NCBI GenBank assembly: GCA_963842425.1
Contig: CAWJGQ010000007.1
Span: forward strand, 370,486-434,485
Direction: 5' to 3'
DNA length: 64,000 nucleotides
DNA from: an uncultured Acidobacteriota bacterium
Lineage (GTDB): Bacteria > Acidobacteriota > Terriglobia > Acidiferrales > UBA7541
The translations under genes and the position numbers were made by a program. The notes under the pieces were generated by a model that was given only the letters and a program-made list of their open reading frames with translations, did not search any database and was not told the origin of the DNA. This document shows, one piece after another, positions 8,932 to 42,138 of the stretch. Every line of letters starts with the position of its first letter. Position 1 is the stretch's first letter.

Positions 8932-9997
8932 TCAAGCTGTTTGTGGTTTCAGATGTTGGGCGTCGAAGCACACTCCTCTCTTCCACACGATCAGAACGAT
9001 GGTGGCAATCTTCCTGGCCAGAGTCAGCCGCGCCATTTCCGGCCGCATGCCCTTGGCCACCAATGCCGCATAGAACTCCGCGAAGGGACCGGGCTTGGTC
9101 GCGGCGACGATCGCTGCTCCCTTGAAGAGATTTTTCAGATCATGATTGTAGTTTCTGTTCAGCCCGCGAATCTCGACGTGCTTCTTCCGTTCCAGCTGTC
9201 CTTTCACAACATGGTGATCCGCGCTGCTGCTGGTCTCGATGCCGACACCGCCATAGGTCCATAGTTGCCGCTTGGTGCGGAACCGATGCGGGGTCTGTAG
9301 AATGCCCAGCAGCACAGCGGCCCGGATCGGACCGATCGAGGGGATCTGGCAGAGCCGTTTCCAGGCCGGGTGCTTTTTGCTCTCCACCAGCAGATCCCGC
9401 CGCACCTCTTGGCGCAGACATCGCAGCGCATCCAGCTGCTGGTAGTAAAACTCCGCTCGCCGGCGCACTCCTGGTTCATTGATTTTCGCCAGCCACGCGG
9501 CACGATGGCGCGGTGCATAGACCTGCTTGCCACTACAGGGGATGGCCCAACTCCGATAGAGGGCCTTCACCCGGGTCATCACCCGGCTGAGATCTTGGGT
9601 GATGGTGAGATAACTGCGCACCAGTTCCTTCAGGCTTCGCAGGCCGTGTTCACCGTGATAGACGGAGCTGAGATGATTCAGCCGCAGCAACTCGGCCAAC
9701 CGGCGGGCGTCGATCTTGTCACTCTGGTTGCCTTCCCTCATGGAGGCATTCTTTCGCGGATCGCACACCACCAATTTCGTGACGTGTGGTTTCAGCAGGT
9801 CGTACAACCAGGCGGCCCAGGTTCCTTCTTCAAACGTGACCTGCAAGTCTCCGCGCAGCCCGTCGATAAACTGCAGAATCATGCTGGCTTTCGTCTCGAT
9901 CACGCATTCCATCACGATCTTTCCGGCAGTCATTCCTGACCGCAATCGAAATGCTTTCCTTGTGCACGTCCATGCCGATATATTTGGCGCTGGTCAT
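8932..9997 (-). pseudogene. IS110 family transposase, disrupted by a 1-nt insertion near 9929
   Basis: 1066 nt versus 1065 nt for the intact copy 12506..13570. The N-terminal MTSAKYIGMDVHKESISIAVRNDAG (first DEDD Asp) is out of frame, so the ORF track only recovers 8932..9945. Confidence 0.85.
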
Positions 9998-12505: not shown

Positions 12506-13570
12506 TCAAGCTGTTTGTGGTTTCAGATGTTGGGCGTCGAAGCACACTCCTCTCTTCCACACGATCAGAACGATGGTGGCAATCTTCCTGGCCAGGGTCA
12601 GCCGCGCCATTTCCGGCCGCATGCCCTTGGCCACCAATGCCGCGTAGAACTCCGCGAAGGGACCGGGCTTGGTCGCGGCGACGATCGCTGCTCCCTTGAA
12701 GAGATTTTTCAGATCATGATTGTAGTTTCTGTTCAGCCCGCGAATCTCGACGTGCTTCTTCCGTTCCAGCTGTCCTTTCACAACATGGTGATCCGCGCTG
12801 CTGCTGGTCTCGATGCCGACACCGCCATAGGTCCATAGTTGCCGCTTGGTGCGGAACCGATGCGGGGTCTGTAGAATGCCCAGCAGCACAGCGGCCCGGA
12901 TCGGACCGATCGAGGGGATTCCGCAGAGCCGTTTCCAGGCCGGGTGCTTCTTGCTCTCCACCAGCAGATCCCGCCGCACCTCTTGGCGCAGACATCGCAG
13001 CGCATCCAGCTGCTGGTAGTAAAACTCCGCTCGCCGGCGCACTCCTGGTTCATTGATTTTCGCCAGCCACGCGGCACGATGGCGCGGTGCATAGACCTGC
13101 TTGCCACTACAGGGGATGGCCCAACTCCGATAGAGGGCCTTCACCCGGGTCATCACCCGGCTGAGATCTTGGGTGATGGTCAGATAACTGCGCACCAGTT
13201 CCTTCAGGCTTCGCAGGCCGTGTTCACCGTGATAGACGGAGCTGAGATGATTCAGCCGCAGCAACTCGGCCAACCGGCGGGCGTCGATCTTGTCACTCTG
13301 GTTGCCTTCCCTCATGGAGGCATTCTTTCGCGGATCGCACACCACCAATTTCGTGACGTGTGGTTTCAGCAGGTCGTACAACCAGGCGGCCCAGGTTCCT
13401 TCTTCAAACGTGACCTGCAAGTCTCCGCGCAGCCCGTCGATAAACTGCAGAATCATGCTGGCTTTCGTCTCGATCACGCATTCCATCACGATCTTTCCTG
13501 CATCATTCCTCACCGCAATCGAAATGCTTTCCTTGTGCACGTCCATGCCGATATATTTGGCGCTGGTCAT
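12506..13570 (-). CDS. IS110 family transposase (IS-A, intact)
   Basis: 354 aa with MTSAKYIGMDVHK..., EEGTWAAW, NQSDKIDARRLAELL and the C-terminal domain ...GVGIETSSSADHH... Confidence 0.9.
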   Translation of the reverse strand: MTSAKYIGMDVHKESISIAVRNDAGKIVMECVIETKASMILQFIDGLRGDLQVTFEEGTWAAWLYDLLKPHVTKLVVCDPRKNASMREGNQSDKIDARRLAELLRLNHLSSVYHGEHGLRSLKELVRSYLTITQDLSRVMTRVKALYRSWAIPCSGKQVYAPRHRAAWLAKINEPGVRRRAEFYYQQLDALRCLRQEVRRDLLVESKKHPAWKRLCGIPSIGPIRAAVLLGILQTPHRFRTKRQLWTYGGVGIETSSSADHHVVKGQLERKKHVEIRGLNRNYNHDLKNLFKGAAIVAATKPGPFAEFYAALVAKGMRPEMARLTLARKIATIVLIVWKRGVCFDAQHLKPQTA

Positions 13571-21164: not shown

Positions 21165-21530
21165 AATCGTCCCTCCGGGACTTGGGACTCCTCTTATCCT
21201 TTACCCGGCACTGCGCTGCGCTTCGTGCCGGGCTAATTACTGTCGCCGCTTCGCGGCTGAGAATCGGAGTGAGAGATGAGCGCCGCACGCTTCCATCCGT
21301 GCGCCTTCGTTATATATCGCCCAATCGGGACCGCGGGTAAAATGTGCCGTACCTACGGCGCTTGGGATTCGGCGGTTTGGTTTCCCCGCCCTGCCGGGCG
21401 GGGCTAACGTCTGCCGCGCCTACGGCCCTTGTCCGAACACTTTGCTTAGAATGACTGACGTCCGCGGGATTTGCGACCAATGGTATTAGGGAAGCCAAGG
21501 AACCGCGCCGGGCATGGCATGCCATGCCCC
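21165..21530. repeat. Cluster of GC-rich hairpin repeats (REP-like) in a 520-bp gene-free gap
   Basis: gtccctccgggac (21169-21181). cccggcac...gtgccggg (21204-21232). gccgcttcgcggc (21245-21257). gccgtacctacggc (21345-21358). ccccgcc...ggcgggg (21385-21404). Perfect 20-nt palindrome gggcatggcatgccatgccc (21510-21529). Confidence 0.6.
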
Positions 21531-35283: not shown

Positions 35284-35684
35284 CGAAGAATCTCCCTGGT
35301 TACGTTAGAAGCCGAGTATAGGCGGTTGGTTTTCGCGGGACAACTAATGGTGGGGTTAGGTTACAAGGCGGGGAAAAGTGATACACCCTAGGCGCTGCGA
35401 ATCTCAGGGCGCGACTTGCGGCCACCTTGCGATCATATGTGCGACAATATTCCGCCGGGATTAAACGGAATCTGCGTCCGTGTGAATCGAAACATGATCT
35501 GCTCATAAACGGAACTCTATCTCCCGTGTTTACGCTATCTTGCAAGCCGCCGATACGAGATTTAAAGGCGTGCAGTCCAGTTAAATCGCGTTAAATGCGC
35601 GCACAATTTTCGTGCGCTAATCAAATTCCGCTGAAATTGCGAGTCGCGTGTTGAATTTCATGAAATGGACTAGTACCCACTTGA

Positions 35685-36874
35685 TTGCATAACAATGTCG
35701 GCTCCTTAGACCCGGTAGACTTTGGTTTGTCGAGACCAAGGTTCGGGAGGAAGGAGCCGAACATGATGATTATAGGCGTGGATTATCACCCGAGCGATCA
35801 GTACATCGCGTTTACGGATACAGAGACTGGCGAGAGTGGCGAACGGCGATTGTGCCACAGTGGTGGGGAAGCGGAGAAGTTCTACCGGGAGCTGGCGGCG
35901 CGAGGTGTCAGCGTGCGGGTAGGAATGGAGGCCACCGGCTATTCACGTTGGTTCGAGCGGTTACTGGCAGCGTTGGGTATTGAGCTGTGGATGGGCGATG
36001 CGGCCGAGATCAAGACGAAGCGAGTCCGCAAGCAGAAGACTGACCGCAACGATGCTCACCTTCTGTTGAAGCTGCTGCTGGAAAATAACTTCCCAACGAT
36101 CTGGATACCGAGTCCCGGAAATCGTGATCTGCGGCAACTGCTGTGGCATCGGCACCGCATGGTGCAGATGCGAACGCGAATCATGAATCAGCTGCAGGCC
36201 CTGGCGATGAACGAAGGCCAACGAAGGAAGAAGAAGCTGTGGAATGAAGCAGGACGAGCACAACTGGAAAAGCTTCCGCTGGCAACTTGGGCATCACGGC
36301 GCCGGCACGATCTACTCGAGTTGCTGGACCGAATGAACCCGACCATCGAAGAGTTAACCGCGGTGGTCGGGCAGGAAGCGAAGAAATGGCCTGAGGTGCT
36401 GCGGCTGATGACGCATCCGGGCGTAGGTCCGTTGACGGCACTGGCTTTCGTGCTGATCATCGGAACTCCGGAGCGGTTCCAATGCGGGAAGCAGATCGGC
36501 AGCTATGTGGGACTGATCCCGTGCGAGGACTCCAGTGCTGGCCATCAACGGCTGGGACACATCACCAAACAAGGCAGCTCCCTGTTGCGTTTCTTGCTGG
36601 TAGAAGCAGCACAAGCGGCGGCACGTTGGGATGCAGACTGGAGACGACGGTACATGCATCTGGCGATGCGTCGGCAAAACAGTATTGCCAAGGTGGCGAT
36701 GGCTCGAAGACTCGCAGTTCGGCTGTACTGGATGTGGCGGAGGGGTTGGGAGTATTCGCGGTGGGTCGAATTCGGTTCGAACGCGGGACAGCTCGGTACC
36801 GGACATGGCGTGAACTAGAACGTTGTCCACTTGAATGGGCATCCCGCTCCCTCGTGAGAGGGAGTTTGAAGTGG
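35685..36874 (+). mobile_element. IS110-family element 'IS-C'; boundaries uncertain
   Basis: Transposase at 35763..36818. The 8-mer ccacttga occurs at 35677-35684 and 36827-36834. A long imperfect hairpin at 36827-36874 directly follows the stop codon. The true ends could lie further out. Confidence 0.45.
35763..36818 (+). CDS. IS110 family transposase (IS-C)
   Basis: Start at ATG 35763 after ggaaggag (MMIIGVDYHP...). Motifs MEATGYS, KTDRNDAHLL, and C-terminal GLIPCEDSSAGHQRLGHITKQGSSLLR. Confidence 0.9.
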   Translation: MMIIGVDYHPSDQYIAFTDTETGESGERRLCHSGGEAEKFYRELAARGVSVRVGMEATGYSRWFERLLAALGIELWMGDAAEIKTKRVRKQKTDRNDAHLLLKLLLENNFPTIWIPSPGNRDLRQLLWHRHRMVQMRTRIMNQLQALAMNEGQRRKKKLWNEAGRAQLEKLPLATWASRRRHDLLELLDRMNPTIEELTAVVGQEAKKWPEVLRLMTHPGVGPLTALAFVLIIGTPERFQCGKQIGSYVGLIPCEDSSAGHQRLGHITKQGSSLLRFLLVEAAQAAARWDADWRRRYMHLAMRRQNSIAKVAMARRLAVRLYWMWRRGWEYSRWVEFGSNAGQLGTGHGVN

Positions 36875-36937
36875 TAATCATGGTCTGAAGCATAGGATCG
36901 AAGAGATGTTTGGGTCGGACCGAAACCGACCGAAAGA

Positions 36938-37309
36938 TTACAGACGAACCGTGGTCATCGACAGGGCCAAAGAACACGACGAACAAAGACACTCATTGAA
37001 GTGAACGGAGAAGTGCGCTCGAAAACGATTTGACAGAGCCGACGTTGTTAGAGATGTCCGGTTAGCGCACATCCCATGCGCACAGTGCAACTTGGTTCGG
37101 GAGCCACAGCGCATGCAACCATATCTCTCAAAATAGTCCCGCATTCTGAGTAGATATTCTCGCGGAACCATTCTTGCGATCGTCCGATAGGTCGAGTTCG
37201 GCAGAAACCAAGGTTGGAAAATTAGTGCATTCATCTGCTCCTCGGTCAACCTTGGTGAAAAGCGCCCGCTGGGCGCACCGTCCCACTTATTCCTTCCACT
37301 GTTTTGCAT
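36938..37309 (-). CDS. Hypothetical Cys-rich small protein; the 3' end may be altered by the neighbouring IS
   Basis: 123 aa with YGCMRCG....LHCAHGMC (zinc-finger-like). The start is 3 nt after the recombinase stop. Confidence 0.35.
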   Translation of the reverse strand: MQNSGRNKWDGAPSGRFSPRLTEEQMNALIFQPWFLPNSTYRTIARMVPREYLLRMRDYFERYGCMRCGSRTKLHCAHGMCANRTSLTTSALSNRFRAHFSVHFNECLCSSCSLALSMTTVRL

Positions 37310-37311
37310 TC

Positions 37312-37926
37312 TCAGGCTCCTCTTGGATGAGAGTCTCGATACGCCGCTATTAAATTAACCTTACTGACTTGCGTATAAATCTGAGTCGTCTGGAGCCATG
37401 CGTGACCCAGCAGCTCCTGCACGACGCGGATATCTGCGCCTCCGTCTAGAAGGTGTGTCGCAAAGGTGTGGCGCAAAATTCGAGGTGTGACCCTGCCCAA
37501 CCCAGCGAGATTTCCGATCTTAGCGACGGCGAGCTGAAGTGTTACTGGTCGTGGAGGTCTTTCGCGGTCGGGACGAATCGACTGTTCGCGGCGAAGCAAG
37601 CTTGCTAGGCGGCTTCTTGCTTCCCAATAGGACATTGTTTCGACGCTGCCCAGATACCTCTGCTTAGGTTTCGGCTTACCACCTGTGACGCCGTAGTCCA
37701 TCCATTTGCCAATCCAAGACTTGTTTCTTCGGACGGCGCTACCAAATTGCCGAGGCCAGTCTGACGTGAACAAATATCCTTCGCGACGGCCTCCGACATA
37801 ATTAACAATCGCCTTTAAGGCCTTCCTGCCGAACGGCACGATTCGCGTTCTGCCTTTGCCGAATACACGCATCGTGCGCGCCTTGAAATCGACGTTTTCT
37901 AATCGAATCTCCGCCACTTCGCGCAC
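37312..37926 (-). pseudogene. Tyrosine recombinase/integrase, catalytic domain only (N-terminal core-binding domain missing)
   Basis: ...[16 protein letters not shown]..., [39 protein letters not shown] (R...HxxR...Y). The frame upstream of about 37950 has no integrase-like sequence and stops at 38038. Confidence 0.7.
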
Positions 37927-39275
37927 CCTGACTGTGCAGCCGCATGTCGACGCCGCGACTCTGATCTTTGTTCTTGAGCCTGCTGAGACTGCCCCGCAAC
38001 GCGGCCGTTCTTTGCAATTTGAATCATGCGAGCCGCGCTAACTTCTTTGACGCAGTCGGCGCAATAGGTACGTTCACGACCAATTTCAACGCCGCAGTTC
38101 TTGCAAAAACTTTCCGGGCGCGGCGGCGCTACATGCGGCAAACCGGTTGGAATGCCTTTCGCCTCACGCCGATGGTGTTGTGTCAGTCGAGTCGGGGGCC
38201 GATCCTGCCCGCGTGAATTTGATATCGTCGACCAAAGCATCCGACATACCGATTCCGCGACCGGCGCAACCGCACGGCTCCAGCTGGGTGCGGTCTCAGA
38301 TAGCTTTGCGGCGAACGATCCCATGAGGCGACAGGAGCCGTCTCGCTGTTCGAAGAACCAATCACGCCGTAGAGTTTCGCAGCTAATCCACCTCAGAACG
38401 TAGGCGTCCACGTCCGGGCGTATGGGCTCCATAACGTCACACGCCAGACTGTCGCGCGCCTGCGAGTCGACGTGCAAGACGCCGAGCCCGGGATCTAGTC
38501 CGAGAGCAGCGATTGATAAGCGAGTTTCAGATTCAAGCACGGCGTAGAGGTAATTAAGCATGGCGTTAACAGGATTTGTGGCGAGCCTGGGTGATCCAGT
38601 TAGCGGAGAAACGCGAGTTGCGAAAATTCGCCAACGTTCGGGCACGCGGTGGAGATCGCGCTTGGGAAAATTGACCGGTACTCTTCTCCACGCATTCCAA
38701 TAAGCGTGCGCGGCTCGCGATTCGAGCAGACGGGCTAGTTCGATTGTCTTAGCGGACGTAAGGCCCTCGGGGACCCGTGCAATTGCGTTCGCTGTTTCAC
38801 CATTGTTTAGCCCGTCGCGGGCGAGTTTTTCTTGTCCCTCCAGTTTCTTGCCGATCAACTCGCGCACAATTTGCAAGGCTGCGCCTGACTGAGGCGCGAG
38901 CGCCTGGGCGCGCCGGAGGCGGGCATCGGATGGCCGAACGGGACCAGTCACGGCAAGCACTGATCCATCTCGGTTGAGCATCACGAATGAGGCGTCCTGA
39001 TCCGCCAGCCAGCGGAGTGCACCAAGTGTCACCATTCCATCAGATCCGATTACGACCAAGCGGCGTAGACCGTGTCCGATACGTGGAAGGCAGGCGTGGC
39101 GACGTTTTGGGCCGATCCCGTCGTCAAGAATCAGATGACCTCGGTCTACATAGGCCTTGATGCCGTACCCGACAACTAATGGTGAGGGTACAGGATACGC
39201 ACCCTGAAAAGTACCCCGCCTCCGCTCAAGGAACACGAGCGCGTGGAATTTGAATATGGCTGGCCAGCGCGTCAA
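37899..39275 (-). CDS. Cas1-family endonuclease/integrase homologue, stand-alone, with a C-terminal zinc-ribbon tail
   Basis: [59 protein letters not shown] reproduce the Cas1 Glu/His/Asp-Glu core. The tail carries CKNCG...YCADC. No cas2, other cas genes or array in the window. Confidence 0.85.
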
Positions 39276-39369
39276 GCAGGCGGCTTGACTTGTTACGTAT
39301 GAGGCATCAATGTGACCGAACTATACGGACGTCACCATGTGAAGGTCAGCTCAAACCAGCCGGTTGCAC

Positions 39370-40708
39370 TTAGAAAGGCAGCCACTCGAAGGGAAACAAC
39401 TTTCCCGCCGCTTCGGGATCGAGTTTCACTCCTGCGACCTCGGCGGCCCGAGCGAGAACGGGATCTCGCTCGGCGGCGAGATCCTGTGGTGTCGGCAGGA
39501 CGATTTCATCTGGCGTTACGCCAACGTGCTCAAGGCTCTTGCCGTCCTTCATGATCAAATCGGCCTCCGTAACAGAAAACCCATAGTAAATCTCCGCACC
39601 CAGCCCGTGAGCGAACGGGTATATTTGCGCTTCCATAACACTCCCCGAGCTGCGATCTCCTAGAACGAGTCCGCGATGTTCCAACTGAATCACGCGGGCA
39701 AATAGTTCCGCGGCCGATGCTGACGCGCTGTCCACGATGACGATGATTTCGCCCGCGAAAGCGTGGCCGCCCAAGGTCTTGGCGACCTCTGGCCTCAGAT
39801 CCTTTCTACCTACGCGATCGGCGATCTTCACGTCATGATCGAATACGTTTCCGAGCATGCGGTCCAGCGTCGTCACCGCACCGCCGGGGTTGCCTCGAAG
39901 ATCGAGAATCAACGTGTTGTGCTTGCGGACGGCGTCAAAGAGATGATCCACTTCGGGATCAGAAATAAAGAACCTCGGCATCTTCCAGATCACTGCGTCG
40001 TCCATCACCTGCTGTTGCTGCCGAAGCACGTGACCTTCATTCTCACTTTCTCTCAACAACTGGTAATAGTCATTGCCGGACGTGCCCGTAATATTGCGTT
40101 CGGCCTTCAATTGACGGGTCGCGGTGTCAACCAAGACTCTGCGGGACGGCTCCATCGGGATCACGCAGGTCCAGCTGTGTTTTGCTTCGGGGACTGAGGC
40201 CGTTAAACATGTACATGAGATCGCTGAAGTCGTTTCTGTTCACGGAGTTGGTTTCATAGGCAAGCACTTGGTCTCCCGGATGCATTTTCGATTCCGCATC
40301 CGTACCGGGGCGGATGCGGGTGATGAATGCGTTGTCGCCGAACAATTGCATTCGAAATCCGTAATGGAACCGGAACGGACGATCGGGCGGTATCATGAAC
40401 GTATGGCTGTCTTTCAGGCTTCCGAGAAATGCGGCCACCATGCGAAGGCATTCGTTGAAGCTTGACGCGTTCTTGATTCGCTCATCGTACTGCTGATACA
40501 AGGCTTCCAAGTCGAGACCGTGGTACGCAGGGTCGTAATAGTATTTCTTCACCGAATCACGGCCATCGCGCAGTATTCCGCGCCCTCGATCGATTTGCAT
40601 GTTGTCGAATTTCTGTTGGGCGCGCGCGACGCTGGGCGAGGTCAGAAACGCACTCGTACTCAGCAACAAGATCAACGCGATGCGGATGCGTTTTTTAAGC
40701 ACTGACAA
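39370..40708 (-). pseudogene. Peptidase S41 (tail-specific protease family), split by a frameshift near 40127-40164
   Basis: The N-terminal ORF (signal peptide plus PDZ-like part, 40127..40708) and the C-terminal ORF (LILDLRGNPGG, VDSASASAAE catalytic Ser region, 39370..40164) overlap by 38 nt in different frames. Confidence 0.6.
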
Positions 40709-40832
40709 CCTCTTCCAGTCTGCCTGAGCTGCTCACACGACGTGCCTATACATGACCCCGAATCACTAGTCAATAACGGTATTGAAGAAGGAATCACGGG
40801 TTATAGCTGTGGGGCGAACGACGGCCGAATCG

Positions 40833-41990
40833 TCAGACGGTGGGAAGCATGCCGACGCCGGCGGCGGCGACGCTGTCGCGCGACGTGTTCTTCACGAGGT
40901 ACATCGCTTCGTCGGCAAGATGCAGAAGCTCGGCTTTGGTGCGGGAGTCGGTGGGATACGCGGCCACGCCGACGCTGGCGGTCAGGCGCACAGGCGTCCC
41001 GGTGCCCTTCAACCATTCCGTCTCGCGGATCAGCTTATGCAGGCGGTGCGCCACGCCGAGCGCATTTTCCTTGGACGTTTGCGGCAGCAGGACCACGAAT
41101 TCGTCGCCGCCGTATCGGAACGCCAGGTCAATCAGGCGGCACTTCTCCTTGATTGCCTCTCCAATTTCGGCGAGCAGTTTCGAGCCGACCAGATGTCCAT
41201 GCGTATCGTTGACCATCTTGAAGCGGTCGAGGTCTATGAAAATCAGCGAGAACTCAAAAGCGTAGCGGTGCGAGCGATAGATCTCGGTATCGAGCATGAA
41301 ATTCAAATGCCGGGCGTTGTAGAGGCTGGTGCAATCGTCGGTGATCGTAAGCTCGTGAATGCGCTGGACGTGCCGCGCATTTTCGATGGCGATCGCGGCG
41401 TAGTCGGCGAGCGCCTCGAGCAGCGCGAGATCTCGCGCGCTGAATCCCTCCGGGCCGATGCAATTGATCAGCTCGATCACGCCGAGGCACTGGTCTCGGA
41501 AGCGGACCGGCACGGCGACGATCGAGCGTGTCGCCATTTTCGTCTTTTCATCCACTTGGCCGAAAAATCTGGAATCCTTGCTTGTGTCTGCGACCACCAC
41601 CGCTTCGCCGGACTCCGCCACCCAGCCTGCGAGTCCCTGGCCGACCTTGATGCGCACGTCCTTGAGTGCGTCCGCGCCCGCGCCCGTTGCAATCTGAAAG
41701 TACAGCTCGCGCTTCTCGAGGTCCATCAGCAGCAGCGACCACGTGTCCGGGCGCAGGACCTCATTGATTTTTTCCATGATCGTGCGCAGTACCTGATCGA
41801 GCTGCAGCGACGAAGTGAGAGCTTTGCCGAGTTCGTGGAAAACGTTTACTTCGGTTGTTTCCGGGACCGGAGGCTCGATGTCCGGATTACGGCGCCGTTC
41901 CACGCCCTCAAAGGGCTTGGAGTCAGCGGCTCGCCGCAATCGGTCGGCGGGGCTGCGCGACTTGGCGTCTTGGGATTCGGGGAGCAACAT
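40833..41990 (-). CDS. GAF domain-containing diguanylate cyclase (GGDEF)
   Basis: N-terminal GAF-like region and a C-terminal GGDEF domain with RYGGDEFVVLL. The longer + strand ORF 40782..42002 is its antisense shadow. Confidence 0.88.
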   Translation of the reverse strand: MLLPESQDAKSRSPADRLRRAADSKPFEGVERRRNPDIEPPVPETTEVNVFHELGKALTSSLQLDQVLRTIMEKINEVLRPDTWSLLLMDLEKRELYFQIATGAGADALKDVRIKVGQGLAGWVAESGEAVVVADTSKDSRFFGQVDEKTKMATRSIVAVPVRFRDQCLGVIELINCIGPEGFSARDLALLEALADYAAIAIENARHVQRIHELTITDDCTSLYNARHLNFMLDTEIYRSHRYAFEFSLIFIDLDRFKMVNDTHGHLVGSKLLAEIGEAIKEKCRLIDLAFRYGGDEFVVLLPQTSKENALGVAHRLHKLIRETEWLKGTGTPVRLTASVGVAAYPTDSRTKAELLHLADEAMYLVKNTSRDSVAAAGVGMLPTV

Positions 41991-42138
41991 TTGCCATTAT
42001 AGTGAACCATTTTCAACTCTAGCAACGGGCATTCCAATTCGATTGCTGAAAGGCCAATGGCCTGTCCTTTCGGCATTAATTCCCGGGCAGCATTGACACC
42101 CCACCTACCGACGCCTATATTTTTGATGGTCCCTGCGG

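Follow-up and report, generated by a model that had tools for sequence, protein, structure and literature searches.

A solitary cas1 gene of a soil acidobacterium as the probable wreck of a casposon

What is a cas1 gene doing in a stretch of bacterial DNA that holds no CRISPR array? The question is raised by 64,000 nt from an uncultured acidobacterium (assembly GCA_963842425.1, contig CAWJGQ010000007.1, positions 370,486 to 434,485), hereafter the window, in which the open reading frame (ORF) 37899..39275 on the reverse strand encodes a homolog of Cas1. An earlier note on the window presented this ORF as an intact, stand-alone Cas1, excluded a casposon, and offered two explanations, namely, a decayed integrative element with a Cas1-type integrase or a non-CRISPR role of the protein. 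The former explanation is essentially right. The "stand-alone Cas1" is a dead transposon fragment, a doubly truncated casposase gene, and not a CRISPR relic, and window positions 35352-39170 very probably represent the wreck of a casposon, lying before the lptC-like envelope-gene operon of a soil acidobacterium.

The cas1 fragment

The identification of the protein as a Cas1 homolog was borne out by profile searches: ORF 37899..39275(-) matches the Pfam profile Cas_Cas1 (PF01867) with E=2.3e-39 and TIGR00287 with 105 bits, against a cut-off of 71.7. In an alignment of the window protein with ten relatives (A1), the metal-ligand residues E185, H268, D280 and E283, which had been reported as present, are invariant, and so are C391, C394, C405 and C408 of a CxxC..CxxC zinc ribbon. 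The catalytic tetrad is complete, but the gene is truncated at both ends and the description of it as intact does not hold. The window ORF encodes 458 aa, compared with typically ~515 aa in the relatives; in the alignment, the protein departs from its relatives over the first ~35 residues and ends ~70 residues short. The nearest DNA relative, at locus L007 (L-numbers denote related genomic loci and P-numbers related proteins), shows 88% nucleotide identity, ungapped, to window 39170..37929 only, that is, to codons 30-443 of 515; tblastn with three intact genes gave the same limits, and both break points are fixed to within a few bp. By profiles, alignment, tblastn and structural model, the casposase (Cas1) gene is represented in the window by an internal fragment, codons 30-443 of ~515, at 37929..39170 (-). 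The parts of the ORF that lie beyond it, the N-terminal 35 aa from a TTG start and the last 10 aa, are unrelated read-through.

An AlphaFold (AF2) model was made of the full-length relative P0004 (pLDDT 75.5). It comprises a beta domain (residues 25-104), a helical catalytic domain (112-343), a disordered linker, a zinc ribbon (~383-392), two long helices (400-444) and a four-helix domain (456-508). The top structural match of the model is the casposase of Methanosarcina mazei (6OPM, E=6e-18), ahead of CRISPR Cas1 structures; the sequence profile scores for 4N06 and 6OPM are about the same, and sequence identity to 6OPM is 23-24%. Mapped onto this architecture, the window fragment keeps the N-terminal beta domain for the most part, as well as the catalytic helical domain, the zinc ribbon and the long helical hairpin, and has lost the first 29 codons, including the start of the N-terminal beta domain, along with the C-terminal four-helix domain. 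Of the ~110-aa tail with a zinc ribbon that had been described, the ribbon is real but the tail is incomplete: the relatives have ~70 further residues, which form the helical domain cut off in the window copy. Because this C-terminal domain is missing, and the HTH (helix-turn-helix) domain was reported to be indispensable in family-2 casposases (PMC8464041), we infer that the fragment is inactive. Sources label this Cas1 clade "CRISPR-associated endonuclease Cas1".

The absence of a CRISPR array from the 64 kb, claimed in the earlier note, was upheld by TRF, a search for direct repeats and k-mer periodicity, none of which revealed CRISPR-like repeats, and by an Rfam scan of the window, which detected no CRISPR repeat family, only two Acido-Lenti-1 RNAs. 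No array was found in the window or in 147 related loci. Neither cas2 nor any other cas gene appears in the Pfam lists of the relatives' neighbors or beside the window cas1, although no explicit window-wide search for cas2 was made; the neighbors of the window cas1 are a tyrosine recombinase fragment and an S41 peptidase gene.

Intact relatives and their targets

Species representatives from GTDB were scanned, which yielded 173 relatives; 79 loci were kept, all labeled Acidobacteriota except L049. (This contig, labeled 'Candidatus Micrarchaeota archaeon', carries a casposon of the acidobacterial type and is probably mis-binned.) In the three closest contexts, L001, L004 and L006, small ORFs and the gene for a protein of 612-994 aa, which matches PF03175 faintly, lie upstream of cas1, and no cas gene or array was found there. 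In 73 of the 79 loci, a large gene for a family-B polymerase (PolB; ~960-1000 aa) lies within 10 kb of cas1, mostly in divergent orientation and in four loci co-directionally. The polymerase alignment contains the exonuclease motifs ExoI (FDTET), ExoII (GFNLPFD) and ExoIII (YxRxDV), the KRY motif (KxY), and the polymerase motifs A (DFxSQYP), B (KILANSxSYG) and C (CDTDS). The protein-primed-type PolB model PF03175 is matched by 15 of 23 polymerases (best E=2e-8). Comparison of a polymerase profile with PDB sequences yielded no more than a marginal match, to motif C of Pol alpha.

In about 30 loci, polB and cas1 are enclosed by near-perfect inverted repeats of 33-499 bp, which delimit elements of 6.6-17 kb, mostly 12-17 kb. 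Almost no inverted repeats occur near the stop codons of polB and cas1; the terminal inverted repeats (TIRs) lie 2-6 kb further out and were seen when whole flanks were compared. All 26 TIR-bounded elements tested are bracketed by perfect target site duplications (TSDs), 14 bp long in 22 cases, 13 bp in two and 15 bp in two. Given the PolB, TIRs and TSDs, the relatives are casposons by the published definition of this superfamily (Krupovic et al. 2014, PMC4046053). When 1.84 billion cluster representatives were searched with phmmer, 1187 representatives of 50%-identity clusters were returned at E<=1e-30, and the top 150 matches mostly aligned over their full length, tail included.

Several further observations concern these elements. 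At L072 (10,550 bp) and L081/L082 (8,658 bp), the whole contig consists of one element, with TIRs of 139-187 bp at the contig ends, which would fit linear extrachromosomal copies or elements assembled apart from the host genome. Casposon cargo at L031 12223-18534 and L001 3988-5549 includes defense-like genes, among them those for a Schlafen-type helicase (PF09848), a ThiF/DUF6791 protein, and GmrSD_N and FRG-domain proteins. One type of TIR, type A, is found directly after the TSD of another casposon in L028 (17778-17814) and twice in L064 (14930-14965 and 20681-20716), which indicates tandem or nested insertions that re-used a duplicated target.

The 3' end of the TSD is always TTGAC or TTGTC in this family, with a -10-like TAnAcT 16-18 nt further on in 22 of 23 elements, compared with 6% of random control positions; some of the 23 targets are orthologous promoters, so that independent sites number nearer 14. 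Examples are the targets at L031 19945-20020 and at L004 200-235 and 15683-15720. Because the target always ends in TTGAC or TTGTC and a -10-like box follows in all but one of the elements, the acidobacterial casposon family appears to integrate at the -35 boxes of sigma-70-type promoters; the host promoter is preserved on one side of the insertion. The window itself contains the unoccupied equivalent of one such target: its spacer between the GGDEF and rodZ-like genes (42085-42110, TTGACA-N17-TATATT) corresponds to the site that holds a 17-kb casposon in L031, a Terriglobia metagenome-assembled genome. A GGDEF ortholog beside the L031 casposon had been considered as a mark of an orthologous insertion, and was rejected as such, the target there being this spacer, which is empty in the window.

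Taken as a whole, the case for the following joint reading is evenly balanced: that the family of the wreck is undescribed, very abundant (at least 173 copies in GTDB representatives) and recently active in soil Acidobacteriota; that it combines a protein-primed-type PolB with a ~515-aa casposase bearing a zinc ribbon and a C-terminal helical domain, and carries defense-like cargo; and that it integrates exactly at the -35 box (N8-9-TTGAC), with duplication of 14 bp and without damage to the host promoter. Promoter recognition may fall to the C-terminal domain of the casposase.

The remnant, its insertion site and the adjoining modules

The window retains one end of such an element. A type-A casposon TIR, GGGGTTAGGTTACAAGGCGGGGAAAAGTGATACACCC..., occupies 35352..35401 (+), with its tip at 35352 and its interior to the right; along 52 nt, it is 88% identical to the TIR that adjoins the casposon of L001 (L001 3405-3456). 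TIRs of this type, 36-38 nt long, are present at both ends of the 15.5-kb L004 casposon, the TSD of which is TTCGGTCTTTGAC. BLAST of the family's TIR ends against the window gave nothing significant; the window TIR surfaced instead through a 50-nt repeat common to L001, L004, L028 and L064. It is followed by casposon subterminal sequence at 35402..35667 (+), which is collinear with L094 and, over 35454-35667, 81% identical to L023 2657-2872, a region just inside the TIR of L023.

The other limit of the remnant is set by a TSD. The 14-bp duplication GACAACTAATGGTG brackets 3.8 kb: copy 1, GACAACTAATGGT(G), at 35339..35352, directly adjoins the TIR tip, and copy 2, GACAACTAATGGT(G), at 39171..39184, adjoins the 5' break of cas1. 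A 14-bp match that good is expected by chance 0.15 times anywhere in 64 kb. Because the 14 bp outside the TIR tip recur at the 5' break of cas1, the remnant extends from 35352 to 39170; it has only the one TIR, at 35352-35401, and its opposite end is the break inside cas1. The earlier exclusion of a casposon, made in part on the apparent lack of terminal inverted repeats, has to be reversed: PolB, TIRs and 14-bp TSDs mark the closest relatives as casposons, and the window keeps one casposon TIR and a TSD pair. The accompanying statement that the window encodes no family-B polymerase was supported by tblastn and tblastx, neither of which found PolB there. The patch at 35-41 kb was also rightly described as more AT-rich than its surroundings, with 54-59% GC compared with 60-65% in the flanks.

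The insertion site conforms to that of the intact elements. A consensus scan identified a promoter-like site, TTGTCC-N17-TATACT, at 35315..35343 (-), before an lptC/lptA-like gene (start codon 35283); its -35 hexamer falls within TSD copy 1, which fits the target rule of the casposon family. The comparison with empty sites that the earlier note had proposed was carried out with the lptC-like protein as the anchor. In L136 and L093, the GGDEF gene lies ~110 bp from lptC, without a TIR, and the promoter-like sequence is conserved; L136 is 92% identical to the window in LptC and 98% in the GGDEF protein at the aa level, and the empty site reads ...ACAGCT / GTTGTCGCGCGAAAACC... The S41 peptidase was tried as a synteny anchor as well and was dropped, its closest homologs (86-90% aa identity) being located in unrelated contexts that provided no empty site. 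Mobility is thus seen in both directions: the lptC site is occupied in the window and empty in L136 and L093, and the L031 site is occupied there and empty in the window.

A type-A TIR is also located directly upstream of the lptC promoter in L094, L096 and L132. TIRs of further types are present in L132 as well, and the collinearity of L097 with the window reaches only the inner part of the TIR (to 35369). Since TIRs occur upstream of the lptC promoter in several relatives, this promoter is a recurrent casposon target, an insertion hotspot. The GGDEF-lptC spacers of relatives also hold solo TIRs of other types. In L132 (3419-5930), the spacer contains an M13 peptidase gene between two type-A TIRs, and similar, less clear arrangements are found in L096 and L097; these spacers represent casposon relics in which a cargo-like gene is all that was kept.

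We propose the following course of events. The intact elements are TIR-bounded, self-synthesizing transposons of Acidobacteriota, with a protein-primed-type PolB and a ~515-aa casposase. From its N- to its C-terminus, this enzyme has a beta domain, a catalytic helical domain, a zinc ribbon and a helical, HTH-like domain, and it would join the 3' ends of the TIRs to staggered positions 14 bp apart, and the target N8-9-TTGAC, the -35 box of a sigma-70-type promoter, would thereby become the 14-bp duplication. One such casposon would have entered the -35 box of the promoter of the lptC-like operon in the window and later lost its sequence from the polymerase-side terminus inward to cas1 codon 30. 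The broken end at cas1 reads GGGTACGG, close to the TIR tip GGGGTTAGG, and this resemblance of the new end to the tip points to a short-homology deletion or to the use of a cryptic end. The 3' end of cas1, along with the cargo downstream, would have disappeared through a microhomology-mediated junction into the middle of a tyrosine recombinase gene belonging to another mobile element. An IS110 element, too, lies inside the remnant.

The recombinase gene is represented at 37312..37928 (-) by the region for the C-terminal 204 aa of an XerC/D-like tyrosine recombinase, that is, the catalytic domain from Arg-I onward (Pfam, alignment A4). ORF 37312..37926(-) matches only positions 40-170 of the 172 in the Phage_integrase profile. 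In alignment A4, it corresponds to the C-terminal ~204 aa, starting at the first catalytic Arg, of relatives of 333-348 aa, which carry PF13495 and PF02899; the N-terminal SAM-like core-binding domain is missing from the window protein. The truncation had been recognized before. The fusion of two mobile-element genes by a deletion had been suggested as well, and the junction supports it. The cas1 sequence ends ...GCTGCACAGTCA, the recombinase from the junction on is GGGTGCGCGAAG..., and L092, with a full-length recombinase, reads ...TACAGTTCAGGATGCCGC at the junction point, so that the two genes meet at the microhomology ACAGT(T)CA. The cas1 ORF stops 28 nt into the recombinase ORF, the two being in different frames both in the window and in L008, which is 99.7% identical.

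Next to the recombinase lie the first 81 codons of a Cys-rich small ORF (37067..37309, -), with 67% identity over 81 aa to the ORF that directly follows the full-length recombinase gene in L092. As listed, ORF 36938-37309 continues into IS110 sequence, and its homology to the L092 ORF stops at 37067. The partner ORF of the recombinase is thus interrupted by an IS110-family insertion sequence at 35668..37066 (+; ends approximate), the transposase ORF of which, 35685-36818, has both the DEDD N-domain (PF01548) and the Transposase_20 C-domain (PF02371) and scores 208.9 bits against NF033542 (cut-off 140). The module of recombinase and small ORF was not found in intact casposons.

On the far side of cas1, a second TIR-like sequence of another type, GGGTACAGGATACGCACCCTGAAAAGTACCCC, occupies 39185..39222 (+), with its tip by TSD copy 2 and its interior toward the S41 gene. 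It fits the TIR pattern of the family, resembles the TIRs of L011, L065 and L071, and is probably a relic of a tandem casposon insertion; together with TSD copy 2, it forms an arrangement that resembles the tandem casposon arrays of M. mazei. The S41 peptidase gene segment, which is given for context only, includes 39355..40794 (-) and extends over about 39184-40804. Neither of the empty sites, L136 and L093, has it, and it recurs as a ~1.4-kb module of ~86% nucleotide identity in at least three unrelated contexts, in L088, L089 and L090. The TSD consists of the last 7 bp of this segment and GTTGTC; being made partly of the S41 segment, it implies that S41 arrived before the casposon remnant. 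Contrary to the earlier note, which counted a frameshifted peptidase as part of the patch, the gene lies outside the TSD-bounded remnant, and the apparent frameshift at 40145 is a difference between C3 and C2 in a homopolymer relative to the 99.7%-identical L008, which has an intact gene of 443 aa; an error of assembly is possible. Over the 4.9 kb between 40785 and 35899, the window and L008 differ at only 2 positions, and most of their differences, including a 6-bp indel, are located at 40786-40893, around the end of the GGDEF gene and the S41 junction; this cluster suggests a recombination boundary.

Elsewhere in the window, two more IS110-family transposase genes (8935-9997 and 12509-13570, -) encode proteins ~74% identical at the aa level to that of the IS110 element of L001, which sits immediately downstream of the L001 cas1. 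The first 15 kb of the window have a lower GC content, 52-58%. The Acido-Lenti-1 RNA (RF01687) is found twice, at 21204-21258 and 21384-21429 (+), with 47.2 and 40.9 bits and a gathering score of 37.

Alternatives and known systems

The ratio of non-synonymous to synonymous substitution rates (dN/dS) of the cas1 fragment is 0.12-0.15 in comparisons with intact genes, and 0.13 with L007. Given these low values, the fragment spent most of its history under purifying selection, and its truncation looks recent.

Several observations weigh against the reading of the locus as an inactive casposon wreck, or complicate it. The 414-codon fragment is still open, and the window branch has accumulated 18 synonymous and 9 non-synonymous changes, which would be unexpected in an old pseudogene. 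The TIR, the subterminal sequence and the IS110 junction are also found in L094, at 82% nucleotide identity, which suggests an old insertion or recurrent site-specific events. Divergence from L091 across window 35382-40597 is mosaic and switches at the module junctions: it amounts to 0-1% in the cas1 fragment plus 184 bp and to 0% in IS110 (about 35700-37070), but to ~12% in S41 and in the recombinase and small ORF, where dN/dS is 0.14-0.27 (~0.15 for the recombinase and S41). Such patterns could result from gene conversion, from recombination between lineages or from a chimeric consensus. A recent truncation conflicts both with the sharing in L094 and with the mosaic in L091. Furthermore, a single TIR survives and the polymerase is missing, so that the assignment to casposons rests on homology and the TSD; and the S41 segment and the second TIR-like sequence imply a history of the locus beyond a single insertion.

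The loss of the polymerase half is the only point at which one alternative departs from the course proposed above. The truncated element, or a precursor ending in cas1, could have been mobilized as such by a casposase acting in trans, with a genuine TIR at one end and the TIR-like GGGTACGG or a broken end at the other, and its integration at the lptC promoter would then have made the TSD that abuts codon 30. This would explain why a TSD copy adjoins the cas1 break exactly and why the new end GGGTACGG equals the TIR tip GGGTTAGG at 6 of 8 positions, and published casposases tolerate non-TIR ends (PMC9939771, PMC8464041). However, the TIR tip and cas1 share a direct microhomology of 4-5 bp (GGGT), by which a simple in situ deletion explains the same junction, and no second copy of the truncated element was seen; we consider mobilization in this form unlikely. 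A more radical departure is the cellular role raised in the earlier note, in which the gene would be a domesticated, expressed 'Cas1-solo' serving, for example, as a nuclease or in repair. The frame open over 458 codons, the four retained catalytic residues, the low dN/dS (0.13) together with the 18:9 ratio on the window branch, and the near-identity of the fragment in L008 and L091, despite the ~12% difference of the neighboring modules in L091, all count in its favor. Yet a recent truncation explains the low dN/dS as well, and the limits of the fragment are accidental, set by a TSD on one side and by microhomology with an unrelated gene on the other. The first 29 residues and the C-terminal domain are gone, the ORF begins at a TTG with 35 aa of read-through and closes with 10 aa more of it, and essentially all relatives are full length and reside inside casposons. 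A cellular role is thus poorly supported, and we regard it as very improbable.

The junction with the recombinase raises the additional prospect of a functional fusion between Cas1 and the recombinase catalytic domain, given that the L091 gene call P0242 runs in frame from the Cas1 tail into the recombinase and that dN/dS of the latter is 0.15 between L091 and the window. The in-frame call was rejected, L091 being noisy and indel-rich (23 gap openings in 5.2 kb, with S41 and cas1 both broken there); the frames differ in the window and in L008, where cas1 stops 28 nt into the recombinase ORF, and the recombinase has no core-binding domain, all of which makes such a fusion protein highly implausible. 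Only the match to the Cas1 family can be adduced for the decay of a CRISPR-Cas locus, in which an adaptation module would have lost cas2, effectors and array. Arrays are missing from the window and 147 related loci, and cas2 and other cas genes from the called genes of the relatives' loci; the relatives are linked to PolB, TIRs and TSDs; and at the orthologous position, where a complete CRISPR module in close relatives would have argued for such an origin, the sites are empty or contain casposon TIRs. We consider a CRISPR origin of the locus next to impossible, and retain the casposon wreck as the explanation of the locus.

The window Cas1 accordingly does not belong in tallies of CRISPR markers or of functional 'Cas1-solo' proteins, and the same caution applies to soil metagenome surveys in which cas1 serves as a proxy of CRISPR prevalence. 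The wreck itself is ordinary, and the interest lies mainly in the family of its intact relatives. Bacterial casposons known so far are very few, and to our knowledge none has been the subject of biochemical work; a literature search, of incomplete coverage, found no paper on acidobacterial or protein-primed bacterial casposons. If the proposed properties are real, a large family whose TIRs and TSDs are perfect, whose sites are seen both occupied and empty, and whose 14-bp target at promoter -35 boxes is defined would be a tractable bacterial system for the study of casposase targeting, would provide a test of how a Cas1 integrase reads a target resembling a 'leader/repeat', and would add a new data point to the casposon-to-CRISPR scenario. 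The acidobacterial casposons look like a new family, which is to be taken as a probability rather than a result, because they are set apart from the known families on grounds other than a Cas1 or PolB phylogeny.

Among known systems, the CRISPR adaptation module Cas1-Cas2 shares with these elements the Cas1 fold, the tetrad and the duplication of a short target, the repeat in one case and the TSD in the other. Unlike that module, the acidobacterial integrase mobilizes a whole element, and no cas2, array or effector genes are seen at its loci. Pipolins, which combine a polymerase of the piPolB type with tyrosine recombinases, are likewise self-synthesizing and have a PF03175-type PolB, and the window has a recombinase fragment by cas1. 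This fragment, however, derives from an unrelated module, and the acidobacterial polymerase keeps the KxY motif, which piPolBs, as far as is known, have replaced. Cas1-solo group 1 of Methanomicrobiales (PMC4046053) has incomplete catalytic residues, is archaeal and shows no linkage to PolB, and the clade of the window Cas1 differs in all three respects.

Four casposon families have been published: family 1 from Thaumarchaeota, with a protein-primed PolB and no HTH domain, families 2 and 4 from Euryarchaeota, and family 3 from a few bacteria (PMC4046053, PMC9939771, PMC8464041). Family 3, compared by description only, resembles the acidobacterial elements in its bacterial hosts, the extra modules on Cas1 (Zn-binding and HTH in NitAL212-C1; PMC4046053) and the heterogeneous cargo. 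Its PolBs, however, are reported to branch from those of family 2, the RNA-primed type, whereas the acidobacterial polymerase matches PF03175, and the Zn-binding domain of NitAL212-C1 is N-terminal, whereas the acidobacterial ribbon follows the Cas1 core. The Cas1 proteins of family 3 are described as a clade sister to other casposases. Family 2 (Aciduliprofundum boonei, M. mazei) provides the best structural match, 6OPM, and has in common with the acidobacterial elements a C-terminal DNA-binding domain after the Cas1 core, a TSD of ~14 bp and the repeated use of a duplicated target in tandem insertions; it differs in being archaeal, in its RNA-primed-type PolB, HNH genes and targets at tRNA or EF-2 gene ends, and in the 23-24% identity of 6OPM. 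Family 1 (Ca. Nitrosopumilus koreensis AR1; PMC4046053, PMC8464041) has a comparable set of a Cas1-type integrase, a PF03175-like PolB, small ORFs and TIRs, as well as a TSD of ~13-14 bp and sequence-specific targeting; the likeness in PolB rests on motifs and weak Pfam hits in the relatives, not on phylogeny. In contrast to the ~347-aa casposase of family 1, which has no HTH domain, the acidobacterial enzyme has ~515 aa, with a zinc ribbon and a C-terminal helical domain, and whereas family 1 elements are archaeal and compact, the acidobacterial family is bacterial, mostly 12-17 kb in size, variable in cargo and targeted to promoter -35 boxes.

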